Part shown: one piece after another, positions 16,363-36,244 of the stretch | Layout of the letters: every line of letters begins with the position of its first letter | Numbering within the stretch: position 1 is the first letter of the stretch | Source of the DNA: an uncultured Anaerolineae bacterium | GTDB taxonomy: Bacteria; Chloroflexota; Anaerolineae; VGOG01 | Assembly (NCBI GenBank): GCA_964390805.1 | Contig: CAYMKL010000010.1 | Coordinates: forward strand, 12,158-76,157 | Direction of reading: 5' to 3' | Length of the DNA stretch: 64,000 bases | The notes under the pieces: model-generated | What the model saw: only the letters and a program-made list of their open reading frames with translations | The model's database searches: none | What the model was told of the DNA's origin: nothing | Made by a program: the position numbers and the translations under genes

Positions 16363-16422
16363 GATGGGTGGTCCTCGAGCGAACGTGATGCGGGATTGAC
16401 GGTGATCAATGAAAGACCTGCC

Positions 16423-17895: not shown

Positions 17896-17899
17896 GTAT

Positions 17900-18547
17900 A
17901 TGCGCGTCCTGGTAGCTGACGACCACCCTTTGTTTCGCGATGGCATAGTTAGCCTGCTTGAGGCGGCTGGCTTTGATGTCGTTGGACAGGCCGGCAACGG
18001 TCGGGTAGCTGTCGAGATGGCGCTGGGCCTGCGCCCCGACCTGGTACTGATGGACATCACCATGCCGCAGATGACGGGCCTAGAAGCATTGCGCTTGATC
18101 AAGGCTGAGTTGCATGAGACACAAGTGGTGATGCTAACTGTCTCCGACGACAACGCCGATTTGATTGAAGCTGTCAAGGCAGGGGCGCAGGGCTACCTAC
18201 TCAAAAACCTGAACGCCAGCGAGTTTCTGGAGATGCTTGCGGGACTGGAGCACGGCGAGGCTGCCATCACCCGTAAGACTGCCACCCGCTTGATCGAGGG
18301 CTTTGCTGACCGGTCTCGCCCGCACTCCGAGCCGTTGGAAAGCCTTACCCAACGGGAGATAGAAATCCTTCGCTTGGTGGCCGAAGGCCTCCCGAACAGG
18401 GCCATTGCCCAGGCGTTATTCGTCAGCGAGAATACCATTAAATATCACATGAAGAACGTCCTGCAAAAATTGGGCGTTCAGAACCGGACCGAAGCCGCCA
18501 CTTCCGCCCTCCGCGCTGGGCTTCTCAAGTCTGACTCTCCCCGCTAG
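17900..18547 (+). CDS. NarL/FixJ-family response regulator (REC + LuxR HTH)
   Basis: 'MRVLVADDHPLFRDGIVSLL...LVLMDITMP' (REC). C-terminal 'LTQREIEILRLVAEGLPNRAIAQALFVSENTIKYHMKNVLQKLGV' (LuxR HTH). Confidence 0.9.
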   Translation: MRVLVADDHPLFRDGIVSLLEAAGFDVVGQAGNGRVAVEMALGLRPDLVLMDITMPQMTGLEALRLIKAELHETQVVMLTVSDDNADLIEAVKAGAQGYLLKNLNASEFLEMLAGLEHGEAAITRKTATRLIEGFADRSRPHSEPLESLTQREIEILRLVAEGLPNRAIAQALFVSENTIKYHMKNVLQKLGVQNRTEAATSALRAGLLKSDSPR

Positions 18548-19177: not shown

Positions 19178-22100
19178 ATGAGAGACATCAGAAAGTTAGT
19201 GGTTCTATGTGTTGTTCTGACGGCCGTGGTGCTCGTTGTCGGCGGCTGTACGACTCCCACACCTGAGACCATCGAAAAGGAAGTGACCAGGGAAGTGCCG
19301 GTCGAAGTCACCCGAGAGGTGGTGGTGGAAAAGGAAGTCACCGTGGAGGTGGAGAAAGAAGTGCCGGTCGAAGTCACCCGCGAGGTAGAGGTAGAGGTCA
19401 CGCGAGAGGTGGAGGTAGAGGTCACGCGGGAGGTGGAGGTAGAGGTGCCGGTGGAGGGAGAGCCAGGCGTGGAGGCGCCCTTCGAGGCGCTCTGGGCTGG
19501 CTCCGGGCACGCCGATGCGGAGGCCGAGGCTTTCAGACACTGGGACGAGGACGATCCAGTAGAGGTATCCACTAGTTGCGCCAAGTGCCATAGCTCCTAT
19601 GGGTATCTGGACTTCCTGGGCGCAGATGGCACCGAAGCCGGTGTGGTGGATAATGCTGCGGCTGTGGACTCGGTGATTGACTGCACCACGTGCCACAACG
19701 AAGCAGCCGCCAGCCTGACCAGCGTGGTCATGCCCTCTGGCGTCGAACTCACCGGTCTCGGCGCAGAGGCCCGCTGTATGCAGTGTCACCAGGGACGCCA
19801 GTCCACCGTCAGTGTCAACGATCACGTCGCTGCGGCAGGTGTCGCCGACGACGACACAGTCAGTGAGGATCTTGCTTTCCGTAACGTCCACTACTTCGCG
19901 GCCGGCGCCACGCTCTATGGCGGGCAGGCCATGGGCGGCTATCAGTACGATGGCAAGACCTACGACGCCAGGTTCGCGCACGTCGAGGGGATAGACACCT
20001 GCATAGACTGTCACGATCCCCACACTTTGGAAGTCAGGGTGGAGATGTGCAGCGCGTGTCACGTGGATGTGTCCAGCAAAGAAGACCTGGCGGACATCCG
20101 ACTGCTGGGCTCTGGAGTGGATTTCGATGGCGATGGCGAAGTCAGTGAAGGCATCGCTGTCGAAATCGAGCACCTTCAGGAGGTCCTCTATGAGGCTATC
20201 CAGGCTTATGCCAGTGATGCTGGAACTCCCGTCGTGTACGACTCCCACGCTTACCCCTACTTCTTCATAGACACCAATGCCAACAGCGAAGCCGATGCTG
20301 ACGAGGCCAACTACGGCAACAGGTACAATGCCTGGACCGGACGTCTGCTCAAGGCAGCCTACAACTACCAGTACTCCAAGAAGGATCCTGGCGCGTTCGC
20401 TCACGGCGGCAAGTATGTCATCCAGCTCCTCTACGATTCCATTGAGGACTTGGACGCTGGCCTTGTAGCGGGTCTGCATCGCGACGACGCAGGGCACTTC
20501 GCCGGATCAACAGAGGCATGGAGGCACTGGGATGAGGATGGCGAAGTTCGCAGTTCCTGCGCCAGGTGTCATAGTGCCACTGGCCTGCCGTTCTACCTGG
20601 AAACGGGTGTCAATGTAGCCGAGCCTCTGGCCAACGGGATGCTGTGTTCCACCTGCCATGACCCCGAGACGTACGCTCCGTACGCTGTGGATGAGGTGGA
20701 GTTCCCCAGCGGCGCGACCGCCAGCTTTGGCGAGGGGGCGACTTCGAACCTGTGTCTGAACTGTCACCAGGGACGCCAGTCCACCGTCAGCGTCAACTCC
20801 AGAATTGGCGACAACGAGGACGACGCTGTGGTGGAGGGGTTGGGCTTTGCCAACGTCCACTACTTCGCGGCCGGCGCCACCATGTTCGGCGGGGAGGTCA
20901 TGGGCGGGTATCAGTACGATGGCAAGACCTACGACGTCAAGTTCGCCCACGTCGAGGGGATAGATGCTTGCGTGGATTGCCACGACGCTCACACCTTGGA
21001 AGTCAAGGTGGAGGTCTGCAGCGCGTGCCACGCGGGCGTGTCCAGTGCAGAAGACCTGGCGGACATCCGCTTGCTAGGCTCCATTGCGGATTACGATGGT
21101 GATGGTGAAGCCACCGAAGGCATTGCCCACGAGATTGAGCACCTGACGGAGGTTCTCTACGGGGCTATCCAGGCCTATGCCGCAGACGTGGCTGGCACCC
21201 CCATCGTGTACAACTCGCACCGCTACCCCTACTGGTTCACCGATGCCGAAGAAAGATACGGCACCTGGACGCCTCGTCTGCTCAGAGCGGCCTACAACTA
21301 TCAGTACGCCAAGAAGGATCCCGGCGCGTTCGCTCACGGCGGCAAGTACCTCATCCAGCTCCTCTACGATTCCATTGAGGACCTGGATGCTGGCCTGGTG
21401 GCGGACATGCACCGCGACGATCCAGGGCACTTTGCTGGGTCTACGGAGGCATGGCGGCACTGGGATGAGGATGGCGAGGTCAGTGCTTCGTGCGCCAAGT
21501 GCCACAGTGCCACTGGCCTGCCCACCTACCTGGCAACGGGAGAAAATGTAGCCGAGCCCTTGGCCAATGGGATGCTGTGCACCACCTGCCACGATGATCC
21601 CGTCGCGTACACCCGTTACGCTGTGGACGAGGTGGAGTTCCCCAGCGGAGCCGTGGCAGGCTTTGGCGAGGGGGTGGATTCCAATCTCTGTCTGAACTGT
21701 CACCAGGGACGCCAGTCTACCGTCAGTGTTGATGAGCACATCACTGCGGCGGGCGTCGGTGACGACGAAGTCAGCGGAGATCTTGGTTTCCGTAACGTCC
21801 ACTACTTTGCGGCCGGGGCCACGGTCTTCGGTGCGGAGGCTATGGGGGCGTACCAGTACGAGGGCAAAGAGTACGTCGGAGCGTTCGCTCACGTACCGGG
21901 CTTCGACACTTGCACCCAGTGCCACGACACTCATAATCTCGAAGTCAAGGTAGAAGCCTGTGGCACGTGCCATCCCGGCAAAGAGAGTGTCGAAGACATC
22001 CGCATGAGCACCACGGACTTCGACGGGGACGGCCACGCGGACGAAGGCATCGCCCACGAGATCGACCACTTGCAGGAGACTCTCTACGGAGCCATCCAGG

Positions 22101-22381
22101 CTTACGCCAGCGAGGTTACCACGCCCATCATATACGACTCACACTCCTACCCCTACTTCTTCGTGGACACCGACGGGAACGGTGAGGTTGATGCGGGCGA
22201 GGCTAACTACGGCAACAGGTACAGAGCCTGGACACCGCGTCTGCTCCGGGCTGCCTATAACTATCAGTACGCTGCCAAGGATCCCGGCGGGTTTGCTCAC
22301 AACGGCAAGTATGTCATCCAGGCGCTTTACGATAGTCTGGACGACATCGGCGCCGATACCGCTGGCATGGTTAGGCCTTAG
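19178..22381 (+). CDS. large lipoprotein multiheme c-type cytochrome: 15 CXXCH in three tandem pentaheme domains, preceded by an EVTREV repeat linker
   Basis: Signal plus lipobox 'LVVGGC'. Repeat linker 'EVTREVPVEVTREVVVEKEVTVEVEKEVPVEVTREVEVEVTREVEVEVTREVEVEVPVE'. Three ~320-aa repeats each with CA(K/R)CHS, C(T/S)TCH(N/D), C(M/L)(Q/N)CHQ, C(I/V/T)(D/Q)CHD and C(S/G)(A/T)CH. Confidence 0.9.
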   Translation: MRDIRKLVVLCVVLTAVVLVVGGCTTPTPETIEKEVTREVPVEVTREVVVEKEVTVEVEKEVPVEVTREVEVEVTREVEVEVTREVEVEVPVEGEPGVEAPFEALWAGSGHADAEAEAFRHWDEDDPVEVSTSCAKCHSSYGYLDFLGADGTEAGVVDNAAAVDSVIDCTTCHNEAAASLTSVVMPSGVELTGLGAEARCMQCHQGRQSTVSVNDHVAAAGVADDDTVSEDLAFRNVHYFAAGATLYGGQAMGGYQYDGKTYDARFAHVEGIDTCIDCHDPHTLEVRVEMCSACHVDVSSKEDLADIRLLGSGVDFDGDGEVSEGIAVEIEHLQEVLYEAIQAYASDAGTPVVYDSHAYPYFFIDTNANSEADADEANYGNRYNAWTGRLLKAAYNYQYSKKDPGAFAHGGKYVIQLLYDSIEDLDAGLVAGLHRDDAGHFAGSTEAWRHWDEDGEVRSSCARCHSATGLPFYLETGVNVAEPLANGMLCSTCHDPETYAPYAVDEVEFPSGATASFGEGATSNLCLNCHQGRQSTVSVNSRIGDNEDDAVVEGLGFANVHYFAAGATMFGGEVMGGYQYDGKTYDVKFAHVEGIDACVDCHDAHTLEVKVEVCSACHAGVSSAEDLADIRLLGSIADYDGDGEATEGIAHEIEHLTEVLYGAIQAYAADVAGTPIVYNSHRYPYWFTDAEERYGTWTPRLLRAAYNYQYAKKDPGAFAHGGKYLIQLLYDSIEDLDAGLVADMHRDDPGHFAGSTEAWRHWDEDGEVSASCAKCHSATGLPTYLATGENVAEPLANGMLCTTCHDDPVAYTRYAVDEVEFPSGAVAGFGEGVDSNLCLNCHQGRQSTVSVDEHITAAGVGDDEVSGDLGFRNVHYFAAGATVFGAEAMGAYQYEGKEYVGAFAHVPGFDTCTQCHDTHNLEVKVEACGTCHPGKESVEDIRMSTTDFDGDGHADEGIAHEIDHLQETLYGAIQAYASEVTTPIIYDSHSYPYFFVDTDGNGEVDAGEANYGNRYRAWTPRLLRAAYNYQYAAKDPGGFAHNGKYVIQALYDSLDDIGADTAGMVRP
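19290..19470 (+). repeat. in-frame tandem nucleotide repeats encoding the (EVTREV/EVEV) linker
   Basis: 'gaggtagaggtcacgcgagaggtggaggta' is reiterated about 3 times, with degenerate flanking copies. Confidence 0.8.
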
Positions 22382-22592: not shown

Positions 22593-24113
22593 TTACGACG
22601 CCAGAAGTTGGTCAAAGGCGTAGCGCTTGGCCACGTTCTGCAGTTCGGGAGCCAGTTGGCGCAGCGTCCGCTCGAAGGATTGGCGAGCATTCTCCCGCCC
22701 GAAACGGTGACTGACTACGTCCAGTTGCGTCAGCAGGAAACGGCGGTACATCTCCACCAGGTCATCGGTCCTCAGTTGGGGATCGGCCTGATCCTCGATC
22801 CTTCCCCGATTGAGGCGTAAGGGCAGATGGGCACATAGCTGGTTGACCTCCTCCTCGCAGGCGCGGTCTTCAGGTGAGGCTCGCCAGGCTATGGTGCTAC
22901 TGCACATCAGCTCGGCGATCTCGCGGAAGACGCGGCGCAGGCGGATCTTGTCCAGGTCGGCAGTGCGCACGACTCCCACTGCGACCAGGCAGTAAAAGCC
23001 CCGGCTGACTTCGAAGACGGTCAGGCCCAGCTCACGGGCGATGGTTGCCACGTCCTTGACACCGTCAACGGCAGCCACGATCTGCTCCTCGGCTGGCGTC
23101 AGGGACAGACCATCCATGCGCTCGTAAGCGGGGCCCAGCTCAAAGATGGCGTCGGCCGAGGGGACCAGCCGCTGGATGATGGTCCAGTTGTCCACCCAAC
23201 GGCAGCCGCACAGGATTAGGTCCTCGGCGCTGAGAGCCAGGGGGACACACCAGTCCTCGCAGCCCGTCTCCTGATCGAAGGTGAATTGCCCTTCCTGCCA
23301 GCGAAAGAGATCGCATAGCCCTTCCAATACTTGTTCGGGAGGCGGTGGGGGAGGGACCGGCTCGTCCTGGCGCAGGCAGGCGGCACAGACAGGTCTCCCC
23401 CCTTCAAAGCTGAGGGTGCGGATCACAACCCCATCGGTGATGGTGAGTGTGCCGCTGTGCCGACCAGAGACGATGAGGCGAATGAGATCGGGCAAATGAT
23501 AATGGCGCAGGTTACCGCTGAGGATCATCAGTCCTCGCCGGGTGCCTGCTTCGGCATGGTGTGCCTCTCCCTCACCTTGAATATCACGGATGACGTCGGC
23601 CAGCCAGTCATGCTCCATCTCCAGGAAACGACACGTATGATCGAGGATGGCCAGCTTGAGGGGCGATTGTCCGTCATCCTGTTCCGCAGCCAGGGCCGCC
23701 TGGACTTTTTGGGTCTCCTCGGCCAGGAACGCCTGGCGCTGTTCCAGCAAGGGGATGGCACGCTGCAAGGGGAGCTTGTTCAACAAGTGGATGACCAGGT
23801 CATAGGCGAGATAGGTCTTCTCCTGGCTGGCTGCCTGGATCTCCATGGCCGCAAAGAAGGCGCTCCGGCCTTCCTCAGTGAGACGGTAAGTGGACTTGCG
23901 AGCACTGCGGGCTCCTCGCTGACGCGACTCGGCCACCAGGCCCTGATCGCGCAGCTTGCCCAGCGAATAGTAGACGCCGGCCATACTGACGTTGAACCAG
24001 GCATCAATGCCCTCGGCCTGGATCTGCTGGTAGAGCTCGTAGCCGTGCATGGGCCGGTCCAGCAGCAAGCCTAGAAGCAGTAGGTCCGTTTTGGTCGCGA
24101 CTGGCTTAGTCAT
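22593..24113 (-). CDS. PadR-family transcriptional regulator with a long C-terminal extension (~400 aa)
   Basis: N-terminal PadR wHTH 'LLLLGLLLDRPMHGYELYQQIQAEGIDAWFNVSMAGVYYSLGKLRDQGLV...STYRLTEEGR'. Start chosen at MTKPV (GGGAGG RBS); an alternative start is at 24140. Confidence 0.7.
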   Translation of the reverse strand: MTKPVATKTDLLLLGLLLDRPMHGYELYQQIQAEGIDAWFNVSMAGVYYSLGKLRDQGLVAESRQRGARSARKSTYRLTEEGRSAFFAAMEIQAASQEKTYLAYDLVIHLLNKLPLQRAIPLLEQRQAFLAEETQKVQAALAAEQDDGQSPLKLAILDHTCRFLEMEHDWLADVIRDIQGEGEAHHAEAGTRRGLMILSGNLRHYHLPDLIRLIVSGRHSGTLTITDGVVIRTLSFEGGRPVCAACLRQDEPVPPPPPPEQVLEGLCDLFRWQEGQFTFDQETGCEDWCVPLALSAEDLILCGCRWVDNWTIIQRLVPSADAIFELGPAYERMDGLSLTPAEEQIVAAVDGVKDVATIARELGLTVFEVSRGFYCLVAVGVVRTADLDKIRLRRVFREIAELMCSSTIAWRASPEDRACEEEVNQLCAHLPLRLNRGRIEDQADPQLRTDDLVEMYRRFLLTQLDVVSHRFGRENARQSFERTLRQLAPELQNVAKRYAFDQLLAS

Positions 24114-24180
24114 CGGTCCGCCTCCCTGTCTGCTGCTCATAGTATACCAGAAAACCTGGGAAAAATCAACTCAAACATTC

Positions 24181-24209
24181 TTGACAAAAGGCGAAAAACG
24201 TGTTATAAT
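24181..24209 (+). promoter_or_regulatory. consensus sigma70 promoter (TTGACA - 17 nt - TATAAT, extended -10 TGtTATAAT)
   Basis: TTGACA at 24181-24186; TATAAT at 24204-24209. Nearly identical to the promoter at 30766-30794. Confidence 0.7.
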
Positions 24210-24286: not shown

Positions 24287-24934
24287 ATGAGTGCAAAATC
24301 GGTTTCACGGCGCACCTTCCTTAAATCGGCTCTGGCCGGAGGTGCGCTGGTTGCTGTGGGCGGTGGGGCAGCCCTGGCCAGTCCGAAACAGGCCGATAAG
24401 ACGGCAGATTATGCCCTGATCATTGACACCACCAAATGCGTGGGCTGCGGCGCATGCGAGACAGCCTGCAACCTGCGCAACCACCTGCACGAAGGCCACA
24501 GTTACATCCACATCCTGCACCGGGGCGAGGGAGAAGACGAGCGTTTTCTGCCTGTCCAATGCCAGCACTGTGCCGATCCCCCGTGTGCCCACGTCTGCCC
24601 TACCAACGCCACCTACATCCGCGACGACGGGGTGGTGCTCATCAATGAAAAGGTCTGCGTCGGCTGCCACTACTGCGAAGTGGCCTGCCCCTATCAGGCT
24701 CGCATCTTCGATGAGGGGCGGGGCGTGGCCGACAAGTGCTGGCTGTGTCTGGACTACGTTTTAGGCGGCGGCGAGCCGGCCTGTGTCCATGCCTGTGTGC
24801 TGGGGGCCCGACTGTTCGGTCGCACCGACGATCCGGGCAGTGAAGTGGCTCAACTAATCGCCTCGGGACAGGCCAAGCCGCTCCGTCCCGAATTTGGCAC
24901 CGAACCGACGGTGCTCCGCTACATCATCGAGTGA
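24287..24934 (+). CDS. Tat-exported 4Fe-4S ferredoxin-type subunit (HybA/NrfC/DmsB-like)
   Basis: Tat signal 'SRRTFLKSALAGGALVAVGGGAALA'. Cys clusters 'CVGCGACETACNLRN', 'CQHCADPPCAHVCP', 'CVGCHYCEVACPY', 'CWLCLD...CVHAC'. Confidence 0.9.
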   Translation: MSAKSVSRRTFLKSALAGGALVAVGGGAALASPKQADKTADYALIIDTTKCVGCGACETACNLRNHLHEGHSYIHILHRGEGEDERFLPVQCQHCADPPCAHVCPTNATYIRDDGVVLINEKVCVGCHYCEVACPYQARIFDEGRGVADKCWLCLDYVLGGGEPACVHACVLGARLFGRTDDPGSEVAQLIASGQAKPLRPEFGTEPTVLRYIIE

Positions 24935-24937
24935 GGT

Positions 24938-25906
24938 GTGACCATGCAAACTGCCTGGGGTTGGTTGCCATCCATTTACCTGTTTTTGGGCGGTCTGGGA
25001 GCCGGGGCGTTTTTAGTGGCCGCTATCATGGAGTGGACAGGTGAGCAATACAAACACGACTTTTGCCCCACCTCTATGGTAGGCGCCACCGTTGGCGGGC
25101 CACTGTTGCTTTTGGGCACAGTGTTGCTGATTTTCGACCTGGGGGCTGGCCTGAGACAACCCTGGCGTATCCTCCACATGTTCACCCACTTCAGCTCGGT
25201 GATGACCTGGGGCATCTGGATCCTGAGCATCTTCATCCCCTTGTGTTTCCTGTACGGCTTTCTGGAGCTGATGGAGGTCTACCCCAGAGTGTGGCAGGGA
25301 CTGTTTGTTCGCCGCTTTTCCCCGCTGGGCCGGCTGCAGTTACGACGGATCAAACACTGGGTGGCCGGAATAGGTAGTCTGTTCGCCGTGGGCACGGCTG
25401 TCTACACCGGGGTGTTACTGTCAGCGGTGGGGCCGTCTATCCCCTTCTGGTCCACTCCTATTGCTTCCGGTCTGCCCATTCCCATGCTGCCGGTGTTGTT
25501 CTTGGTATCGGCCATCTCCACCGGCCTGGGCTTGACCATTGACCTGTCGGCCACCGTGTCCCTACCGGAGGTGTTGCGCCGCTTCCACTACATGCCTATG
25601 ATCCACCTGGTGCTCATCGGGTTGGAAGCTGTGCTCATCGGAGCGCTGTTGCTGGTGGCTCTGGGTCAAGGTGGAGAAGCAGCTCAATCGGCCACTTATA
25701 TCCTTAGTGGCCAACTGAGTGTGGTCTTTTGGATCGGGGTGGTGGCGCCAGGTTTGGTCTTTCCTTTTGTGGTACACGCCTACGCCATCGGTGCTGGTAG
25801 TCACTCCCTGGCTTCGGGGCTGATTTCCGGAGTGGGTATCGTCGTAGCTGGCCTGTTTCTGCGCTACATCATCGTCGCTAGCGGCGTACCGGCCGCCCTA
25901 TGGTGA
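24938..25906 (+). CDS. NrfD/PsrC-like polytopic membrane protein
   Basis: 322 aa with ~8 TM helices. Sits between the HybA-like and multiheme cytochrome genes. Confidence 0.75.
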   Translation: MTMQTAWGWLPSIYLFLGGLGAGAFLVAAIMEWTGEQYKHDFCPTSMVGATVGGPLLLLGTVLLIFDLGAGLRQPWRILHMFTHFSSVMTWGIWILSIFIPLCFLYGFLELMEVYPRVWQGLFVRRFSPLGRLQLRRIKHWVAGIGSLFAVGTAVYTGVLLSAVGPSIPFWSTPIASGLPIPMLPVLFLVSAISTGLGLTIDLSATVSLPEVLRRFHYMPMIHLVLIGLEAVLIGALLLVALGQGGEAAQSATYILSGQLSVVFWIGVVAPGLVFPFVVHAYAIGAGSHSLASGLISGVGIVVAGLFLRYIIVASGVPAALW

Positions 25907-25922
25907 TTGGAGGAGATGCAAC

Positions 25923-27476
25923 ATGATCCCATCTACGTGGCCTCGTTGGACAGTGATCGTGATTGGGTTGATCCTGGCTGTGCTCACAATTGCCATCGCC
26001 TTGCTACTGGAGCCAGTGGGCCAGGCCTTCGCCCCAGCGATTACACCCACACCGACGCTTCCCTCTATCAATTACGCTCGTCCCGTCTCTGGCGAGTGCG
26101 AGCAGTGCCACTTCGACAGACAGGCCCTCATTGCCAGTGCAGACTCCTCTGAGAACGTGGAAGACTTCTACTTCTACATCGAGCCGGCCTCTCTGAACAC
26201 TCCTCATGGACACCTGGGATGTATCACCTGCCACGGCGGCACGGCGAACGTGGCTGACGAAGAGGCTGCTCATCAGGGCTTGATTGAGGACCTCAGTGAG
26301 ACCCATCCTGAGGATTGCCTGCTTTGTCATCGCAACCTCCCAGACCAGCTCCCTGAGGACCATCTGCGCACCCCCCACGGCCAGGTATCCAACGCTGTCT
26401 GGGAAGGCTCAGCGTGTGGGGTGTTGTGCAGTGATTGCCATGGACAGGTGGGCCACGGGTTCGACCCCGTCACGGGTGAGATCATCTGTCCCATGACCGT
26501 GTGCCTGGATTGCCACATTGAGCGCGGGCTGGGAGAAAAGCTCACCGATTGTAACACCTGTCACGTTGGCCCCCACGATGTGGCTGTGGCCATGACCTGC
26601 AAGGACTGCCATACCTCCACGGACACGTGGAAAGAGACGGCGCTGTCGGTGCATCCAGTGGAGATCATGGGCCAGCACGCCACAGCAGATTGCTTTTCCT
26701 GCCACGGGTGGCCCGATTTCAAGGGATTGGACTATGTCTGCAGCGACTGCCACAAGCAGTCTCACGACTTCGGCGGCGACAACTGTGCACTGTGTCACAC
26801 CTCGGTCGGCTGGGCTGAGTCAGCCGATGCACTGGTGGCCGGTGCCACGGGCATCCCCCATCCAGTAGTCGGGCGCGAAGACTGCCGATCCTGCCACGGA
26901 TTAGAGGGCCAGCCACCTATCCCGGTTGATCACAAGGGGCGCATCAACGATACCTGTCAGATCTGTCACGTCCTGGAACCGGCGCCGGCCATCCTGCACC
27001 CGGTGGAGGGGCACGAGCGTTGCCTGAGCTGCCACGGCGAGGGCCAGGTTGCCCAGTTCCCGCTCTCTACGCACAGAGACCGTGATGAGGCGAGTTGCCG
27101 CGCCTGCCACGACCCAGCCGGTGTGGTGCCGCTGCCCATCTCACATCCGCTGGAGGGGAGGGAGGACTGTCTCATGTGCCATGCAGCCGAGGCTTTCATG
27201 CCCTATCCAGACAGCCACGAGGGCTGGGGGAATGAGCTCTGTCAGCTTTGTCACGAGGCTGGAGCACTGCCGAGCGAGGGGGAACATCCCTTCCCGCAGG
27301 ATCACGACGGGGCGGCCAAGGTTTGTGTCCTCTGCCACTCTGGCAATGACTTCACGGCCTATCAGTGTGACACTTGCCATGCCGCGGATGGAATGCAGCA
27401 AGTGCACAGTGCGCGAGGAATCAGCGGGATAGAGAATACCTGTGCGCTCTGCCACCCGCAGGGACAAAAGCCATAG
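25923..27476 (+). CDS. 19-heme c-type cytochrome with N-terminal signal peptide
   Basis: 19 CXXCH motifs counted across 517 aa. Signal 'VIVIGLILAVLTIAIALLLEPVGQAFA'. Confidence 0.9.
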   Translation: MIPSTWPRWTVIVIGLILAVLTIAIALLLEPVGQAFAPAITPTPTLPSINYARPVSGECEQCHFDRQALIASADSSENVEDFYFYIEPASLNTPHGHLGCITCHGGTANVADEEAAHQGLIEDLSETHPEDCLLCHRNLPDQLPEDHLRTPHGQVSNAVWEGSACGVLCSDCHGQVGHGFDPVTGEIICPMTVCLDCHIERGLGEKLTDCNTCHVGPHDVAVAMTCKDCHTSTDTWKETALSVHPVEIMGQHATADCFSCHGWPDFKGLDYVCSDCHKQSHDFGGDNCALCHTSVGWAESADALVAGATGIPHPVVGREDCRSCHGLEGQPPIPVDHKGRINDTCQICHVLEPAPAILHPVEGHERCLSCHGEGQVAQFPLSTHRDRDEASCRACHDPAGVVPLPISHPLEGREDCLMCHAAEAFMPYPDSHEGWGNELCQLCHEAGALPSEGEHPFPQDHDGAAKVCVLCHSGNDFTAYQCDTCHAADGMQQVHSARGISGIENTCALCHPQGQKP

Positions 27477-27590
27477 CAAGGAGGTGAGAGCCGGAGAGAA
27501 AAACGAAGACAGATCAGGCCAGATTCTTCCTGGCCAGCAAACCCGTTCAACACACACAACATCTACTTAAGGAGGAAAACAACAAGAACA

Positions 27591-28724
27591 ATGAAGAAGC
27601 TTACATTTCTCACCCTAGCCCTGGTCATCGTTCTGACCATGGCCACCAGTGTCTGGGCCGACGATCCCACTGGCGAATTTGCTGTCATCCAGCAGGCTGC
27701 CGACGACTATCTCAGCAGTGGCAAATCGCCGGTCATCAAAGCCGACGCCCTGTTCGAGAATCTGAACGACGGCGACGCCTCCAATGATCCCTTCATTCTC
27801 AGTGTGCGCAGCCCGGATCACTATGCCATCGGCCACATTGCGGGGGCCATCAACATCCCCTGGCGAGAGGTCGCCAAGCCGGAGAACCTGGCCAAGCTCC
27901 CTACAGACAGACAGATCGTGGATTACTGCTACACCGGTCACACTGGTCAGGTGGCAGCGACCATTTTCAACTTGCTGGGTTACGACGCCCTCAACCTCAA
28001 GTTCGGGATCATGGGATGGACCAAGGACGACACCGTTTTCGGTCACACTGATCGCTTCTACCCGGAGACCCAACCGGACTACAGAGTGGAGACCGACCCC
28101 CATGAGGCCACGACCACTTATCCTTATCCTGTGGTCAGCACCGGCAAGGCCGAAGCTATGGACATCATCGCCACTGCCGCCGACGAGTATCTCAGCAGCG
28201 GCAAACCGCCGGTCATTAAGGCCGATGCCCTGTTCGAGAACCTAAACGACGGTGATGCCTCCAATGATCCCTTCGTCGTCAGTGTTCGCAGCCCGGACCA
28301 CTATGCCATCGGCCACGTTCCAGGGGCCATCAACATCCCCTGGCGGGAGATCGCCAAGCCGGAGAACTTGGCTAAGCTCCCTACTGACAGACAGATCGTG
28401 GTCTATTGCTACACGGGTCACACTGGCCAGGTGGCAGCGACCATTCTCAACTTGTTGGGTTACGATGCCCTCAACCTCAAGTTTGGGATCATGGGATGGA
28501 CCAAGGACGACACCGTTTTCGGTCACACTGATCGCTTCAACCCGGCCACCCAGCCAGACTACAGAGTGGAGACCGCTCCGGTAGCTGTTACTTTGCCCAC
28601 CACCGGTGGAGCCTTGCCTGCCGAAGCTGCGTCCCTGGGCCTGGTGGTCTTTGGTGCCGTCTCTCTAACCGCCGGCGTGGCCAGCTATGCCTGGCGCCGC
28701 CGCAACCTGCGCAAGGCTGCCTGA
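27591..28724 (+). CDS. secreted tandem-rhodanese (sulfurtransferase) protein with a C-terminal LPXTG sortase sorting signal
   Basis: Signal peptide. Two repeated rhodanese modules, each with 'YCYTGHTGQVAATI' containing the active-site Cys. C-terminal 'LPTTGG' + hydrophobic 'LGLVVFGAVSLTAGVASYA' + 'WRRRNLRKAA'. Confidence 0.85.
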   Translation: MKKLTFLTLALVIVLTMATSVWADDPTGEFAVIQQAADDYLSSGKSPVIKADALFENLNDGDASNDPFILSVRSPDHYAIGHIAGAINIPWREVAKPENLAKLPTDRQIVDYCYTGHTGQVAATIFNLLGYDALNLKFGIMGWTKDDTVFGHTDRFYPETQPDYRVETDPHEATTTYPYPVVSTGKAEAMDIIATAADEYLSSGKPPVIKADALFENLNDGDASNDPFVVSVRSPDHYAIGHVPGAINIPWREIAKPENLAKLPTDRQIVVYCYTGHTGQVAATILNLLGYDALNLKFGIMGWTKDDTVFGHTDRFNPATQPDYRVETAPVAVTLPTTGGALPAEAASLGLVVFGAVSLTAGVASYAWRRRNLRKAA

Positions 28725-28969
28725 TCGCTTAAGTTCACTAAGAAGACTCAGTAGATCCAATTCTGCTCGGCCTGGATCGCCAGATCCAGGCCAAAGGCGG
28801 GGAAGGCAACCGTAGGTTGCACGCAATCCCCTTGGAGCAATTCTGGATCTACTGAGACTCTGGGGATGAGAGGTCGAAGACGACCTCTCATCCCCAAGAC
28901 CATGTCTGCAAGTCATCCGGCAGGTGAGCCTGATAGCGGCTTGCCGATTCTAATTTCAGGAGACTGGCT
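28725..28969. other. intergenic region with nested perfect hairpins
   Basis: ggcctggatc-gcca-gatccaggcc; ggggatgagaggtcg-aaga-cgacctctcatcccc (15-bp stem). Flanking imperfect inverted repeat 'ctcagtagatccaattc' ... 'gaattctggatctactgag'. Confidence 0.5.
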
Positions 28970-29515
28970 ATGAACAATTCTACACTGCGCGGATTGGTAA
29001 CCCTGACCGCGTTGCTGCTGGTCGTCTTATTGGCGGCTTGCGGGCCTCAGCCGACGCCGGTCACACCGGTGCCGCCGACGACCGTAGTGGCTGCACAGCC
29101 CACTGATACCCCGGTGCCGCCTACGGACACGCCGGTGCCGCCGACTGACACTCCTGTCCCGCCAACCGCTACGCCGATACCCCCAACCGATACTCCTATC
29201 CCACCCACTGCCACGCCGGTACCTCCGACCGATACCCCGGTGCCGCCCACCGCTACGCCAGTACCCCCAACCGATACTCCCATCCCACCCACCGCTACGC
29301 CAGTGTCCCCAACCGATACTCCTATCCCACCCACCGCCACGCCGATGCCCCCAACCGACACGCCGGCACTGCCTACCGATACCCCGGAGCCTCCAACAGC
29401 CACACCGGTGCGCAGCGCGGACAATTGCGTCGCCTGCCACACCGATGAGGCGACGCTGCAGGCCCTGGCTGTGGAGAAGGAGGTCAAGTCGGCCGAGACG
29501 TCGGGTGAGGGCTGA
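28970..29515 (+). CDS. lipoprotein with a Pro/Thr-rich repeat linker and one CXXCH; probably the N-terminal part of the downstream decaheme cytochrome (separated by an in-frame TGA)
   Basis: Lipobox 'LLAACG'. ([12 protein letters not shown])n repeats. 'CVACHT' near the end. Same reading frame as the 29534 ORF; stop TGA at 29513-29515. Confidence 0.7.
29090..29400 (+). repeat. in-frame tandem repeats encoding the PT(D/A)TP(V/I)PP linker
   Basis: Reiterated 'cccaccgatactcctatcccacccaccgctacgccagtaccc'-type units. Confidence 0.8.
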
Positions 29516-29533
29516 GGAGGAGCGTTACCTCCG

Positions 29534-30622
29534 TTGGAGGTATGGGAGAAAGTCTTCGTCAGTGATGCGGACTTCATGACCTCAGTTCACAACACGCCCA
29601 ACTGTATCGGCTGCCACAGTGGCATCGGCGGCACGGACGACAAGGACGCCGCCCACCAGGGAGTGGTCGGCGACCCGACCCTGGATCCGGTGCCTGCTTG
29701 CGGCACCTGCCACAACGACATCGTGAGGACGGCCGAGACCAGCTTGCACTTCGCCATCAACGGCTACAACACCATCCTGACTGACCGAGGCGCTGATTTC
29801 AGCAATCCGGCCATGGCCGAGGCCTTCGACAACCACTGCACCGAGTGCCACACCACCTGCGGCCAGTGTCACGTCAGCAGGCCCGCCTACGCGGACGGTG
29901 GTCTGATCAAAGGCCACCAGTTCAAGAAGGTGGCCTCCATCAGCCTCACCTGCCTGGGCTGCCACGGCGGGCGCGTCGGGCCTGAGTACCAGGGCAAGAA
30001 CGAAGGGATACCAGGCGACGTCCACTGGTTCAAGGGTGGCATGCCCTGTATCGAGTGCCACGACGTGACGCAGTACCACGGAGACGGCACAGAGTATGCC
30101 CATCGCTACGACGGGCCAGTGTCGCCCAATTGCGTGGACTGCCATCCAGATGTGGAGGGCGGCCAGGACGGCGTGCCCCAGCACATCATGCACGGCGAGA
30201 AGGTGGCCTGCCAGGTCTGCCACAGCGCCGGAGCTTACAAGACGTGCTACGGATGCCACGTGGGCAAGGACGACCAGGGCCTGACCTACCGCAAGACCGA
30301 TCCCACCCGTTTTGAGTTCAAGATCGGCTTGAACCCACAGCAGAGCGAGGAGCGGCCCTGGGAGTACGTCCTGCTCCGCCACGCGCCGGTGGCCCGCGAC
30401 ACCTTTGCTTACTACGGCGAGAACCTGTTGCCCAACTTCGATGCCGTGCCGACCTGGAAATACACCACCCCGCACAACATCCAGCGGATCACGGCGCAGA
30501 ACCAGGAGTGCAACAACTGTCACGGCCAGGCCGACCTGTTCCTGACCGCCGACGACGTGCTGCCCGACGAGCTGGAAGCCAACGCAGCCGTCATCGTGAC
30601 CGAGATACCGGCAGGCAAATAG
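29534..30622 (+). CDS. decaheme c-type cytochrome domain (no signal peptide of its own; TTG start only if independent)
   Basis: 10 CXXCH motifs. No hydrophobic N-terminus. In frame with the upstream lipoprotein ORF across a single TGA. Confidence 0.75.
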   Translation: MEVWEKVFVSDADFMTSVHNTPNCIGCHSGIGGTDDKDAAHQGVVGDPTLDPVPACGTCHNDIVRTAETSLHFAINGYNTILTDRGADFSNPAMAEAFDNHCTECHTTCGQCHVSRPAYADGGLIKGHQFKKVASISLTCLGCHGGRVGPEYQGKNEGIPGDVHWFKGGMPCIECHDVTQYHGDGTEYAHRYDGPVSPNCVDCHPDVEGGQDGVPQHIMHGEKVACQVCHSAGAYKTCYGCHVGKDDQGLTYRKTDPTRFEFKIGLNPQQSEERPWEYVLLRHAPVARDTFAYYGENLLPNFDAVPTWKYTTPHNIQRITAQNQECNNCHGQADLFLTADDVLPDELEANAAVIVTEIPAGK

Positions 30623-30648: not shown

Positions 30649-30683
30649 GAGCCATCCTTGTGAAACAGGATGGCTCTTTTGTT
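30649..30683 (+). terminator. rho-independent terminator
   Basis: gagccatcc / ggatggctc 9-bp stem with loop ttgtgaaacag, followed by TTTTGTT. Confidence 0.7.
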
Positions 30684-30765: not shown

Positions 30766-30794
30766 TTGACAAAATGCCAAAAAGGTGATATAAT
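30766..30794 (+). promoter_or_regulatory. consensus sigma70 promoter (TTGACA - 17 nt - TGaTATAAT), near-identical to the promoter at 24181
   Basis: cTTGACAAAAtGCcAAAAAgGTGaTATAATc vs cTTGACAAAAgGCgAAAAAcGTGtTATAATc. Confidence 0.7.
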
Positions 30795-30848: not shown

Positions 30849-31258
30849 TTATGCCACGCGGTCGTCGTCGGAGGGGAAGGGGGGGCAGAGGTGGTGGCCC
30901 CTGCCCCACGCGAATATATCGTTTCGTGGAACCGTGTCTGCTCCTGCTGCTTCATCGCGGTGCATCCCACGGCTATAGCCTGGTGGAGGAGTTGAAGGAG
31001 TTCGGGTTTGCGGAGACTCCCATTGATCCCAGCATGGTCTATCGCGCCTTGAGGGAGATGGAGGCCCTGGGTCTCGTGACCTCAGCCTGGGATACCGAGG
31101 GCTCAGGGCCGCCACGGCGGGTCTATCAAATAACCGCCGAGGGCGACCAACACCTGGCCCTATGCGTGGCCGACCTGCGGGAAATGGACCGGGTGCTGCA
31201 CAGCTTCTTTGTCGCTTATGATAGCCACATGGAGGAGGGCGAGGGTGAGCATCATTGA
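30849..31258 (+). CDS. PadR-family transcriptional regulator
   Basis: 'HGYSLVEELKEFGF...SMVYRALREMEALGLVTSAWDTEG...RRVYQITAEGDQHL'. Arg/Gly-rich N-terminus. Confidence 0.85.
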
Positions 31259-32003
31259 TGATCTGATCGCCTCTCTGAGAGGCGATGCTCCCGTGCGCGA
31301 AGTACGGGTCTGCGCCTTCTGGACGGCAGTGGTGCTTGATGACGGACGCTGCGGACTGGCTTCCACTCTGCGTCCCGATGAGCCTCAGTGTGCTGGCCCC
31401 GCTCCCCTGGTGCCGCGGGCAGGCCACCTGTTGGATTGCAGCGCGATGGAGCTATCTCAATACGCCAGATCCGAGAGCCTCCTGGAGGCCTCCATCGGGA
31501 TGGCGGCTGTGAACTCCCTGATGGAGATTGACGAGAGCCGGTATGTGGAGCTAAACGCGGGGGATGTCATCCTGAAGGAGGGAACGGGCAGGAAAGTGGC
31601 CATCGTGGGGCACTTTCCCTTCACCCCCAGGGTGAGGGAGGCGGCCGAGAAGCTGTGGGTGCTGGAAAAGAGGCCATTGGAGGGAGACCTGCCTGCGGAG
31701 ATGGCGGCCGAGGTGCTCCCCCAGGCAGACGTGGCGGCCATCACCGGCACCTCGCTCATCAACCACACCTTTGAGGGATTGATGAAGCTGTGCCGCCCCG
31801 ACACTCTGGTCATCGTCCTGGGCCCCACGGCGCCCCTCTCGCCCCTGCTCTTCGACTACGGCGTGGACATCATCTGCGGAACCCTGGTCGCCGACGCGGA
31901 AAACGTGCTGCGACTCATCGGCCAGGGAGCCAACTTCGGGCAGGTGAAGCGCGGCAGGGGCGTGCGCTTGCTGACCATGGCCCAGACGCGAGATTCTAGT
32001 TAA
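31245..32003 (+). CDS. DUF364-like (Rossmann-like domain; putative metal or cofactor-binding) protein
   Basis: 'GKVAIVGHFPFTP...ADVAAITGTSLINHTFEGLMKLC...LVIVLGPTAP...GVDIICGTLV'. GTG start at 31245 chosen so as not to overlap the PadR gene. Confidence 0.55.
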   Translation: MSIIDDLIASLRGDAPVREVRVCAFWTAVVLDDGRCGLASTLRPDEPQCAGPAPLVPRAGHLLDCSAMELSQYARSESLLEASIGMAAVNSLMEIDESRYVELNAGDVILKEGTGRKVAIVGHFPFTPRVREAAEKLWVLEKRPLEGDLPAEMAAEVLPQADVAAITGTSLINHTFEGLMKLCRPDTLVIVLGPTAPLSPLLFDYGVDIICGTLVADAENVLRLIGQGANFGQVKRGRGVRLLTMAQTRDSS

Positions 32004-32093
32004 AGAACATATCCTACCAGGACGCAGATGAACGCAGACAAACGCTGATTTTTTGATCTCATCTACGTGTAAGCAAAGCGGCATCTGCGTTCG

Positions 32094-33185
32094 ATGAAGA
32101 ACGATTTCATGAGAAAGGAGCAAGAGTTGGTTGACGAACAGCAGGTACATCAAGCGTTACGAGAGGTAAAACATCCAGAGTCAGGCGGTAGTTTGATGGA
32201 ACTGGGCATGATCAGGGACATAAGGGTGGACGACAGGCAGGTGAGATTCACCGTCGTCCTGCCCTTCATGGACGTGCCCATCAAGGATCAGGTCGTGAGC
32301 GAAGCGCGGGCGGCGGTGGAGAAGCTGCCAGAGGTCAAGAGGGTAGCCATCGAGCTGGCCGAGATGACTCAGAAGGAGAGAGCCCACTTCATGTCGTTCG
32401 GCAGAGAGACCGGTTCGGCTGAGGGAGTGAACCGTGTCAAGCACGTCATCGCTGTGTTGAGCGGCAAGGGTGGAGTAGGCAAATCTACAGTGGCAGCACT
32501 TCTGACTGTTGCTTTGAGGAGGGAAGGCCATAGAGTGGGCCTGCTCGACGCCGACATCACCGGCCCCAGCATCCCCAAGATGTTCTTCCCCACGCAGAGG
32601 CATCCAGATAACAGCCCCCTGGGCATCCTGCCGGTGGAAAGCGAAACAGGCATTGAGGTCATGTCCATCAATCTGCTTCTCCCCAGCGAGGACCAGGCGG
32701 TCATCTGGCGGGGGCCGCTCATTGGCAAGGCCATTCAGCAGTTTTGGGGTGACGTATACTGGGGCGATCTGGATTACCTGGTCGTGGACCTTCCCCCCGG
32801 TACGGCCGATGCCGCGCTGACCGTCATGCAATCTATTCCTCTGGATGGTGTAGTTCTGGTCACCTCGCCCCAGGGGCTGGCGGGAATGGTAGTGCGTAAG
32901 GCGGCGCAGATGACTCAACACATGGGTACGCCCATCTTAGGGTTGGTGGAAAACATGAGCTACACCATTTGCCCCAAATGCGGGGAGCGCATCGAGATCT
33001 TCGGTCCCAGCAAGGCGGCAACTACAGCAGAGAAGTTCAACATGCCGTTTTTGGGCCGGCTGCCCCTCGATCCCGAGATCTCTAAACTCTGTGATGCCGG
33101 GATGGTTGAGAAATACCCAGCCGATACTTTCGCCCCCATTGCTCAAAAGGTAGTGGCTAACAGGGAAGCGAGAGCCGATAGATGA
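32094..33185 (+). CDS. apbC: Mrp/NBP35/ApbC-family Fe-S cluster carrier ATPase with N-terminal DUF59 domain
   Basis: N-terminal DUF59 'HPESGGSLMELGMIRDIRVD'. Deviant Walker A 'IAVLSGKGGVGKSTVAALL'. C-terminal 'CPKCGERIE'. Confidence 0.9.
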   Translation: MKNDFMRKEQELVDEQQVHQALREVKHPESGGSLMELGMIRDIRVDDRQVRFTVVLPFMDVPIKDQVVSEARAAVEKLPEVKRVAIELAEMTQKERAHFMSFGRETGSAEGVNRVKHVIAVLSGKGGVGKSTVAALLTVALRREGHRVGLLDADITGPSIPKMFFPTQRHPDNSPLGILPVESETGIEVMSINLLLPSEDQAVIWRGPLIGKAIQQFWGDVYWGDLDYLVVDLPPGTADAALTVMQSIPLDGVVLVTSPQGLAGMVVRKAAQMTQHMGTPILGLVENMSYTICPKCGERIEIFGPSKAATTAEKFNMPFLGRLPLDPEISKLCDAGMVEKYPADTFAPIAQKVVANREARADR

Positions 33186-33223
33186 AGATCTGCTGAAGGT
33201 AAAAAGCAAAGAAAACAGAGGAG

Positions 33224-33451
33224 ATGAAAGCGATGTTTCAACGATTATTCGGTCGTGGAGGCGGTCGTGGTGGAGGCCGCGGCCTGGGACACGGCGGAGG
33301 GCGGGGCCGCATGGGCGGCACCAAGGCTGGTGCGGGGCCCGACGGCTACTGCATCTGCCCCAACTGCGGACATAAGGCGCCACATCAGGTGGGTGTGCCC
33401 TGCTACCAAATGGACTGCCCCAAGTGTGGCACCAAGATGGTGAGGGGGTAA
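33224..33451 (+). CDS. small Gly/Arg-rich zinc-ribbon protein (paralog at 49206..49442)
   Basis: 'FGRGGGRGGGRGLGHGGGRGRMGG' followed by 'CICPNCGHKAPHQ...CPKCGTKM' (two CxxC). Confidence 0.6.
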   Translation: MKAMFQRLFGRGGGRGGGRGLGHGGGRGRMGGTKAGAGPDGYCICPNCGHKAPHQVGVPCYQMDCPKCGTKMVRG

Positions 33452-33454
33452 GCC

Positions 33455-35232: not shown

Positions 35233-35241
35233 GGGGAGCAA

Positions 35242-35898: not shown

Positions 35899-35903
35899 GC
35901 GAT

Positions 35904-36191
35904 ATGCCAGCTTTTGATGGAACCGGGCCTCGGGGCCTCGGCCCCATGACCGGCCACGGGGAGGGGTACTGCGCCATCGCGTTCCCCCCGCCCGGAACGG
36001 GGAAGGCGCCCTACGGATACGCGGGACTGGCGGGCACGCCGGTGCAGCCTGCCCTGGCGGGCAGTCCAGAGACGGGGGTTCCCTACGCTACGCCACCCGT
36101 TACCGCAACACCCTTTGTGCCTTTGTCTGCCCCACGGTTTGGCCGGGGATTGGGACGGCGCCGGGGTAGAGGTAGAGGAAGATGGCGATAG
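35904..36191 (+). CDS. DUF5320-like Gly/Pro-rich small protein (N-terminal MPxFDGTGP motif)
   Basis: 'MPAFDGTGPRGLGPMTGHGEGYCAIAF...RFGRGLGRRRGRGRGRWR'. RBS GAGGAGG upstream. Confidence 0.6.
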   Translation: MPAFDGTGPRGLGPMTGHGEGYCAIAFPPPGTGKAPYGYAGLAGTPVQPALAGSPETGVPYATPPVTATPFVPLSAPRFGRGLGRRRGRGRGRWR

Positions 36192-36244
36192 TGTGAAGTC
36201 GCCCACAATTATCTAAACTGATGTATTGGAAGGAGGTGAACAAG

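Follow-up and report, generated by a model that had tools for sequence, protein, structure and literature searches.

A presumed quinone-linked FeS-NrfD-multihaem cytochrome module of uncultured Anaerolineae and its neighbouring rhodanese and candidate selenocytochrome

The FeS-NrfD-cytochrome trio

The genome of an uncultured Anaerolineae bacterium (assembly GCA_964390805.1, contig CAYMKL010000010.1) was analysed over a stretch of 64,000 nucleotides (nt), hereafter the window, whose numbering is used for all positions given for this genome. On its forward strand, at 24287-27476, the window carries three genes, referred to as the trio, which encode an iron-sulfur (FeS) protein, an NrfD-type membrane protein and a c-type cytochrome of 517 amino acids (aa) with 19 CXXCH motifs, exactly as described in an original prediction made from the DNA alone. 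The trio is followed on the same strand by genes for an exported rhodanese and for a second multihaem cytochrome, which is interrupted by an in-frame TGA and is here interpreted as a selenoprotein. The three genes are as follows.

24287..24934, + strand: FeS gene, 215 aa; ferredoxin-like subunit exported by the twin-arginine translocation (Tat) system, with four [4Fe-4S] clusters, of the NrfC/PsrB/DsrO type
24938..25906, + strand: NrfD gene, 322 aa; NrfD-family integral membrane subunit with 8 predicted helices and a presumed quinol/quinone site
25923..27476, + strand: 19-haem cytochrome gene, 517 aa; membrane-anchored c-type cytochrome

In the list of open reading frames (ORFs), 3 nt lie between the FeS and NrfD genes and 16 nt between the NrfD and cytochrome genes. 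The FeS protein possesses a twin-arginine signal (SRRTFLK; Pfam TAT_signal, E 3.7e-5), a Fer4_11 domain (Pfam E 3.3e-23) and 16 cysteines arranged in four cluster motifs. With its own Tat signal it differs from the FeS subunits of two Psr-like operons located upstream in the window. Its best solved relative is PsrB of the Thermus polysulfide reductase (2vpw_B, E 1.4e-36, residues 42-209), and in the NCBIfam comparison DsrO scores highest with 165.2 bits, followed by TtrB (158), NrfC (153.7), HybA (106) and HmcB (103.6), all of these equivalog matches lying under their cut-offs. The label 'HybA-like' of the original prediction is thus better replaced, as three families score above HybA and the closest structure is PsrB. 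The NrfD protein matches PF03916 (E 2e-35, 123 bits against a cut-off of 25.8 bits) and has eight hydrophobic segments and a Lys/Arg-rich loop at residues 112 to 141; a phmmer search of the PDB returned no relative by sequence. Taken together, these features support the assignment of the FeS and NrfD proteins to a quinone-interacting module of the NrfCD/PsrBC type with predicted quinol turnover, in agreement with the quinol dehydrogenase module that had been proposed originally. No molybdopterin subunit is encoded beside the trio, MopB-like subunits being found only in the two upstream operons; an identity as alternative complex III (ACIII) or Qrc was ruled out, since no MopB-like subunit adjoins the trio.

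The 19-haem cytochrome

A motif scan of the cytochrome detected 19 CXXCH motifs and neither CXXCK nor CX3-4CH, while only about 0.24 CXXCH would be expected by chance from the Cys and His content of the protein (arithmetic estimate). All 19 motifs are invariant across 17 orthologues with 52-80% identity, and the same holds for 18 non-motif histidines and for Met-191, which together would provide enough ligands for 19 hexacoordinate haems. The protein contains one haem per 27 residues overall and one per 25 in its soluble part. It had been described as unusually haem-dense; however, PpcA (4hc3) and the related c3-type cytochrome 3bxu, with 71 residues and three haems each, reach about 24 residues per haem, so that the density is ordinary for c7/c3-type cytochromes.

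The N-terminus consists of one hydrophobic helix (residues 11-29) followed by the sequence A-F-A-P. Cleavage by signal peptidase I is blocked by a proline directly after an A-x-A site. The helix, whose sequence (WPxW...) is conserved, is also kept in natural NrfD-cytochrome fusions of 740-789 aa. For these reasons the helix is regarded as an uncleaved membrane anchor; a cleaved signal peptide, against which the length of the hydrophobic stretch also speaks, was ruled out. The anchor leads into a 10-haem core, which extends to about residue 299 and is followed by a 9-haem extension (residues 298-517). Haems 11-16 are bound by six H-X7-CXXCH units spaced by 22-25 residues. Conservation is particularly high in the segment WEGSxCGVxCSDCHGxVGHGFDPVTGxxxC-P/S-M-x-V-CLDCH, and Cys-189 and Met-191 are near-invariant over 70 family members.

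Database comparisons place the protein among electron-transfer cytochromes. Pfam yields only c7, c3 and MtrC-domain signatures, and the only NCBIfam match is the DmsE/MtrA family (TIGR03508, 31 bits against a cut-off of 192.2 bits). In the PDB, the single sequence finds MtrA (6r2q_A, E 1.8e-4); a profile of the orthologues finds MtrA with E 7e-9 and HmcA with E 1.6e-7 to 2e-6 (2e84 with E 1.6e-7; 1h29; 1gws), more weakly the multihaem cytochrome 6qvm (8e-4) and the ACIII subunit ActA (0.02), and eight-haem nitrite reductases only at the noise level (E of about 0.03-0.04). The original prediction had named membership in a known family with an established soluble substrate, for example a HAO- or OTR-type enzyme, as the outcome that would overturn it. 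For the HAO, OTR and NrfA families, neither a Pfam nor an NCBIfam match was obtained (PF13447 and PF02335 are absent), and the PDB profile search returned no HAO or OTR structure. Nor does the sequence point to an open or Lys/Tyr-coordinated haem like those of catalytic multihaem proteins such as HAO, OTR, NrfA and MccA: all motifs are CXXCH, and the 18 invariant histidines plus Met-191 would serve the 19 haems. An AlphaFold2 model built from a 70-sequence alignment reached a predicted local distance difference test score (pLDDT) of 62.6 and a predicted template modelling score of 0.36, and a Foldseek search of the PDB with this model gave no match with E < 5. By its sequence, the 19-haem protein looks like an electron-transfer wire and not like an enzyme.

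The wire family and the conserved gene order

Relatives of the wire are all encoded in metagenome-assembled genomes of Anaerolineae or other Chloroflexota. Among 1.84 billion representative sequences, 258 proteins match the family at E <= 1e-30, and many of these are giant cytochromes of 1000-3900 aa, in which wire modules are repeated up to 30 times. The giant metagenomic cytochromes P0241-P0286, for instance, repeat the haem modules that correspond to residues 190-300 and 305-475 of the 19-haem protein. The anchor and the 10-haem core (residues 1-299) are common to all family members, and the C-terminal part varies by lineage, resulting in classes of 10, 13, 15, 17 and 19 haems; the full 19-haem architecture forms essentially one 50%-identity cluster. 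A cytochrome b domain is joined to the 9-haem C-terminal module (71% identity) in P0058 and P0067.

The order FeS-NrfD-cytochrome is kept in every orthologous locus examined. Furthermore, the order FeS-NrfD-cytochrome-rhodanese-selenocytochrome on a single strand is shared by the window and the loci L005, L012 and L013; the wire has 13 haems in L005 and 15 haems in L012. The same five genes are present in L001 and L021, where they are arranged divergently, and only the rhodanese gene is missing from L006.

The rhodanese and the candidate selenocytochrome

The following features lie downstream of the trio.

27591..28724, + strand: tandem rhodanese; exported, with two CYTGHTG active-site loops and a C-terminal LPTTG sorting signal
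28970..30622, + strand: candidate 11-haem selenocytochrome of 550 aa including selenocysteine (Sec)-182, with lipobox LAAC and a Pro/Thr-rich linker of about 125 aa
29513..29515, + strand: in-frame TGA, read as selenocysteine in the motif SGEG-U-GG
29526..29542, + strand: hairpin resembling a selenocysteine insertion sequence (SECIS), with a 7-bp stem and a GUU loop, starting 14 nt from the U of UGA
30649..30676, + strand: terminator-like hairpin of 10 bp with a T run, located 27 nt beyond the stop codon of the selenocytochrome (pattern match only)

The rhodanese possesses a signal peptide, and its only two cysteines are those of the two CYTGHTG loops. At its C-terminus, the LPTTG motif precedes a hydrophobic segment and a basic tail. 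Its orthologues retain the two loops as well as a sorting signal of the form (L/M)P(E/T/A)TG.

Naive annotation divides 28970-30622 into two ORFs in the same frame, 28970-29515 (181 aa) and 29534-30622 (362 aa). The upstream ORF encodes the lipobox, the Pro/Thr-rich linker and one haem motif; the downstream ORF encodes ten haem sites and lacks a signal peptide. The TGA is located at the same alignment column in 11 distinct loci (12 matches, the two from L001 and L002 being identical), including a locus of only 43% identity, and the protein sequence is conserved on both sides of it (...SEGEG-U-GGxxPPxExWEK...); in the window, the peptide around Sec-182 reads SGEG-U-GGALPPLEVWEK. Two full-length homologues, P0205 and P0235, have a cysteine at the TGA column (...G(V/A)G-C-SVRL...). 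The SECIS-like hairpin is the centroid structure of its region (z = -1.9), its consensus stem is kept in six of seven sequences with one compensatory change from G-C to A-U, and it matches no family in Rfam. In the related locus L005, moreover, a TGA replaces a Ni-ligand cysteine of a [NiFe] hydrogenase (RICGV-U-TTVH). Because of the recurrence of the TGA in 11 loci, the Cys-containing homologues, the hairpin, the lack of a signal peptide in the downstream ORF and the TGA of the L005 hydrogenase, we read the TGA as selenocysteine and interpret 28970-30622 as one putative 550-aa, Sec-containing 11-haem lipoprotein.

The hydrogenase gene itself (L005, 1560-3275, - strand) encodes a [NiFe] large subunit that is split by the TGA within the N-terminal RxCGxC nickel-binding motif. 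This suggests that Sec occupies the N-terminal ligand position, and not the C-terminal position usual for [NiFeSe] enzymes.

The selenocytochrome has 11 haem sites and only 10 invariant non-motif histidines. One haem without a conserved distal His ligand is thus a candidate special site, beside Sec-182, Trp-192 and Lys-194; Sec is located 25 residues after haem motif 1, in the GEG-U-GG loop. Statements on haem ligation and Sec geometry rest on conservation counts. The family comprises 1908 database clusters at E <= 1e-5, mainly from Anaerolineae (Chloroflexota), and an AlphaFold2 model of the Cys-type homologue P0205 (pLDDT 56.9) has no match in the PDB. A literature search for the trio operon or the selenocytochrome in Chloroflexi/Anaerolineae found nothing specific, apart from the general observation that multihaem cytochromes are numerous in Anaerolineae.

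In three further loci, the selenocytochrome carries an N-terminally fused rhodanese domain with a CYTGQSA loop and, at its C-terminus, a membrane anchor.

L023, 69-3255: rhodanese-selenocytochrome fusion
L024, 3-2589: rhodanese-selenocytochrome fusion
L025, 3-3385: rhodanese-selenocytochrome fusion

Each fusion is followed by a gene for a 298-aa FeS protein and, in L023 and L025, then by a cytochrome b gene (PF01292). By gene content, this arrangement corresponds to a three-subunit quinone-coupled enzyme in which the selenocytochrome takes the presumptive catalytic position. In L023, genes for DsrE, DsrH and TusA and a DsrE2-like gene continue beside the fusion. The fusion also accounts for the label 'thiosulfate sulfurtransferase', which the Joint Genome Institute (JGI) assigns to fragments of the selenocytochrome family.

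Regulatory signals and flanking genes

Three further features lie upstream of the trio.

24181..24209, + strand: promoter-like site ahead of the FeS gene; TTGACA and, after a 17-nt spacer, TATAAT, preceded by TG
22593..24140, - strand: regulator with PadR and PatA_N (DUF4388) domain matches, divergent from the trio
19178..22381, + strand: 15-haem lipoprotein cytochrome of 1067 aa, with three pentahaem repeats of about 310 aa behind a Glu/Val-rich linker (EVTREVEVEV...)

The promoter-like site agrees with all 12 of 12 sigma-70-like consensus positions and, together with the strong terminator-like site at 30649-30676, brackets the five genes; both are pattern matches only. The PadR/PatA_N regulator adjoins the module in L001, L005, L006, L015 and L021 with 60-76% identity. 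An orthologue of the 15-haem lipoprotein with 75% identity is located directly after the trio in L003/L007, beside ccm cytochrome-maturation genes, and this lipoprotein is a possible alternative partner for the wire.

Comparison with known systems

The trio is a variant of the complexes that combine a cytochrome, an FeS protein and NrfD and lack a molybdopterin subunit, namely Hmc/Nhc, NrfBCD/NetBCD and DsrJOP; however, it reaches no family cut-off of any of them. It differs from these complexes in four traits: the cytochrome is anchored and varies stepwise in length, the setting is probably monoderm, a rhodanese regularly accompanies the module, and a new selenocytochrome is its probable partner.

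Hmc of Desulfovibrio, and similarly Nhc, Ohc and Tmc, resembles the trio in combining a large multihaem cytochrome with a four-cluster FeS protein and an NrfD-type protein. HmcA is soluble and composed of c3-like domains with 16 haems in all, and the Hmc complex contains HmcDEF, which link it to the cytoplasm. The cytochrome of the trio, in contrast, is anchored N-terminally and has 19 haems. It has no HmcA equivalog match, the FeS protein scores 103.6 bits against the HmcB cut-off of 420 bits, and no hmcDEF genes are found beside the trio, whose neighbours encode the rhodanese, the cytochrome and regulators.

NrfB and NetB are pentahaem cytochromes. In NrfBCD, and in NetBCD of Aeromonas and Vibrio, a cytochrome together with an NrfC-like FeS protein and NrfD forms a quinol dehydrogenase of the inner membrane, from which a separate terminal protein receives its electrons (PMC8805035, PMC10553843). 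The trio has the same three components. NrfB and NetB, however, are small, soluble proteins of diderm bacteria, whereas the cytochrome of the trio is a membrane-anchored 19-haem protein of a probably monoderm Anaerolineae bacterium. The 19-haem protein does not match the NrfB model, and the FeS and NrfD proteins reach 153.7 of 377.6 bits for NrfC and 76.9 of 347.6 bits for NrfD.

The third related complex is DsrJOP, and DsrO is the best NCBIfam match of the FeS protein. DsrJ is a cytochrome with an uncleaved signal anchor and mixed haem ligation by His, Met and Cys, features reminiscent of the anchor, Met-191 and Cys-189 of the 19-haem protein; however, it has three haems and not 19. DsrO is matched with 165.2 bits against a cut-off of 200 bits, DsrP and DsrJ are not matched by the trio, and DsrM and DsrK are not encoded nearby. 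The MtrA/DmsE decahaem family, in turn, shares the closely spaced, repetitive haem motifs and contains the best solved relative by sequence. The 19-haem protein differs from it in being anchored to the cytoplasmic membrane, and no gene for a porin partner was seen next to the trio.

Polysulfide reductases are related through the other two subunits. Like PsrABC of Wolinella and Thermus, the trio contains a PsrB-like FeS protein and an NrfD/PsrC-type anchor, whereas haem proteins stand in the place of the catalytic molybdopterin subunit PsrA. In the Sud-PsrABC system of Wolinella, the extracytoplasmic rhodanese-type protein Sud acts as a sulfur carrier in polysulfide respiration, and the rhodanese downstream of the trio has its parallel in Sud.

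The selenocytochrome has one close analogue. MccSep of Geobacter sulfurreducens (ExtKL, GSU2937-2936) is a polysulfide and selenite reductase, an extracytoplasmic multihaem cytochrome in which an in-frame UGA is read as Sec and which had been annotated as two ORFs; its gene cluster also encodes the rhodanese ExtH (PMC13510729). It has five haem motifs, a His/Cys-ligated haem 2 and a Sec residue in a DG-U-P loop of the C-terminal immunoglobulin (Ig)-like domain, and it has been reported mainly from Desulfobacterota and Nitrospirota (PMC13510729). The selenocytochrome of the window is likewise an extracytoplasmic multihaem protein that is split into two ORFs at a UGA read as Sec and is clustered with a rhodanese. 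It has 11 haems instead of five and a GEG-U-GG instead of a DG-U-P loop. Membership in the MccSep family was ruled out: the MccSep entries 9wt8 and 9wt9, which are present in the PDB library searched, are matched at E <= 1 neither by the single sequence nor by an 88-sequence profile. MccSep is the only characterised precedent for Sec-plus-haem chemistry, and by analogy the mechanism here would resemble it.

A model for the five-gene locus

The original prediction had described the trio as a conduit without a catalytic subunit. This holds for the three genes alone, but probably not for the locus: the rhodanese and selenocytochrome genes follow on the same strand in an order that is conserved in relatives, and the partner pair of the trio is probably encoded there. 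On balance, and with modest confidence, we favour the reading that the trio is a quinol:cytochrome c oxidoreductase that has no active site itself and feeds the rhodanese-selenocytochrome pair, the whole constituting a menaquinol-driven chalcogen reductase.

From the gene content, the signals and anchors, the conservation of haems and ligands, the Sec recoding, the gene order and the fusions, we infer a direction of electron flow, a contact between wire and selenocytochrome, a role for Sec and a type of substrate. NrfD would oxidise menaquinol and thereby exchange electrons with the menaquinone pool at the membrane. The four-cluster, Tat-exported ferredoxin on the outer face of NrfD would relay these electrons to the 19-haem cytochrome, which would be held beside NrfD by its uncleaved N-terminal helix, with the 10-haem core serving as the docking part. 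The 9-haem extension would point outward from the membrane of what is probably a monoderm cell. In the genome of the window and in about half of the related loci, the acceptor would be the rhodanese and the selenocytochrome encoded next on the strand. The wall-anchored tandem rhodanese may capture sulfane sulfur, or selenium, as a persulfide, and Sec-182 of the lipid-tethered selenocytochrome, beside the haem that lacks a conserved distal His ligand, may then attack the chalcogen bond and break it reductively. The substrate would be polysulfide, elemental sulfur, selenite or a compound of this kind.

It is tempting to speculate further that 24287-30622 encodes an undescribed extracytoplasmic chalcogen reductase of single-membrane Chloroflexota, in which a wall-anchored rhodanese delivers its cargo to the Sec residue of a new 11-haem family, menaquinol electrons arrive via NrfCD and the wire, and the length of the wire (10-19 haems) is tuned to the distance between the membrane and the wall-tethered partner. 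In this complete form, the proposal is only tentative.

Several observations weigh against the chalcogen reductase. In L008-L011 the trio is solitary, its wire being the only cytochrome encoded within 10 kb, and in L022 and L003 the genes that come next specify different large cytochromes; the wire is therefore not dedicated to the selenocytochrome. Between the wire and rhodanese genes lie 114 nt, and between the rhodanese and selenocytochrome genes 245 nt with a weak terminator-like site (28923-28945), so that co-transcription is putative. Neither selA, selB and selD nor a gene for tRNA-Sec was found within the 64-kb window. The model leaves near-invariant Cys-189, a free cysteine in the motif C-P/S-M-x-x-CXXCH, without an explained role. 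Both structure models are of low confidence (pLDDT 62.6 and 56.9), and the substrate is assigned by analogy, as the selenocytochrome is not homologous to MccSep.

Alternative explanations

Some of the same observations would fit a self-sufficient trio, in which the wire is an extracellular electron conduit to Fe(III) or Mn(IV) minerals, electrodes or partner cells, possibly via the 15-haem lipoprotein encoded upstream in the window, with the rhodanese and the selenocytochrome as unrelated neighbours. The solitary trio in L008-L011 and its position beside other large cytochromes in L003 and L022 would then be expected, MtrA and HmcA are the closest solved relatives of the wire, and the same haem modules build the giant cytochromes of 1000-3900 aa. 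Multihaem cytochromes abound in Anaerolineae, for which an extracellular mode of respiration has been suggested (bioRxiv 10.1101/2021.08.23.457424), and NetBCD shows that NrfBCD-like modules can feed such conduits (PMC8805035). However, this view does not account for the five-gene order, which is kept with the rhodanese and the selenocytochrome across wires of 13, 15 and 19 haems, and no carrier has been cultured, all relatives being derived from metagenome assemblies. The framing of the locus as a system for extracellular electron transfer, which the original prediction had adopted, is thus left without support, given this order and the fusion loci, which place the selenocytochrome in what would be the catalytic position. 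We consider such a conduit the less likely main function, yet a serious rival; the two views are also compatible, as the trio could be a hub that serves several acceptors.

The same five proteins might also work in the opposite direction: the rhodanese and the selenocytochrome would oxidise sulfide, polysulfide or thiosulfate, and the electrons would reach the quinone pool by way of the 19-haem protein, the FeS protein and NrfD, as has been suggested for modules of the TsdA, Sox or DsrJOP type. The authors of the MccSep study relate its mechanism to the reverse of TsdA and SoxAX, DsrO is the top NCBIfam match of the FeS protein (165 bits), an anchored cytochrome with FeS protein and NrfD parallels the DsrJOP part of DsrMKJOP, and sulfur-relay genes for DsrE, DsrH and TusA lie beside the fused form in L023. 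Yet the cut-offs for DsrO, DsrP and DsrJ are all missed, DsrMK is absent, and the two Psr/Phs-like reductase operons of the window suggest a lifestyle of sulfur-compound reduction. Although direction cannot be read from sequence, we regard oxidation as improbable. Catalysis by the 19-haem cytochrome itself, with a special haem near the conserved WEGSxCGVxCSDCHG... segment, appears more improbable still: with only 18 invariant non-motif histidines for 19 haems, and with Cys-189 and Met-191 near-invariant over the 70 family members, a His/Cys-ligated haem of the kind typical of sulfur-converting cytochromes is conceivable, but Met-191 suffices to complete the hexacoordination of the remaining haem, and the protein has no likeness to the catalytic multihaem families.

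Other genes of the window

Besides the trio, the window contains two complete Psr/Phs-type operons at 1014-5340 and 8074-12439 and thus holds three NrfD-type complexes. Each of the two operons encodes a molybdopterin subunit (772 and 769 aa), an FeS protein (229 aa) and an NrfD protein (430 and 445 aa). The molybdopterin subunits have Tat signals; the best model is PhsA with 334-353 bits, under the cut-off, and strong QrcB/QrcC-like scores were obtained as well. A pair of paralogous 7-haem cytochromes, both ending in a class-I cytochrome c domain, is encoded at 6933-8042 and 13502-14593, each preceded by a Band-7/HflK-like gene (6108-6905 and 12521-13303, respectively). The cytochrome gene at 6933-8042 is located directly before the second molybdopterin operon, which results in the Qrc/ACIII-like order cytochrome-MopB-FeS-NrfD. 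An 8-haem cytochrome of the HAO/hydrazine-dehydrogenase type follows at 14656-16362 (PF13447, E 5e-24; NCBIfam HDH, 77 bits against a cut-off of 900 bits), possibly an octahaem enzyme in the same island, and after it a histidine kinase and a LuxR-type regulator are encoded at 16396-18547.

Downstream of the five genes, the region 30851-38288 begins with a small PadR regulator, upstream of which a second site (30766-30794) matches the sigma-70-like promoter consensus perfectly. It continues with a DUF364/DUF4213 protein ('heavy-metal chelation'), an Mrp/ApbC-like ATPase, two MinD-like ATPases with ferredoxin inserts and two Nitro_FeMo-Co proteins, and is a putative metal-cofactor handling cluster. 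At 41917-43266, a pyridine-nucleotide disulfide oxidoreductase is encoded, which is closest to CoA-disulfide reductase (256 bits, under the cut-off), a class that includes NAD(P)H polysulfide/persulfide reductases (PMC13510729).

Implications for the Anaerolineae

Anaerolineae are abundant in sediments, aquifers and digesters, and their many multihaem cytochromes are usually read, without evidence, as machinery for metal reduction. The locus described here offers a concrete and testable alternative, a conserved quinol dehydrogenase and haem-wire module with a modular growth rule, which gene order and fusion tie to a rhodanese and to a new family of Sec-containing multihaem cytochromes; it points to sulfur or selenium respiration in uncultured Anaerolineae. 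Every gene caller splits the selenocytochrome into two ORFs, and for this reason it is invisible in annotations. Once recognised, it would stand as a second, independent family beside MccSep (2026), the sole characterised multihaem selenoenzyme, and would extend haem- and selenium-based sulfur or selenium respiration to the Chloroflexota. If the locus does encode a new chalcogen reductase, sulfur respiration by haem plus selenium would have arisen on no fewer than two occasions, and sulfur or selenium compounds would be respired by many of the abundant uncultured Anaerolineae.

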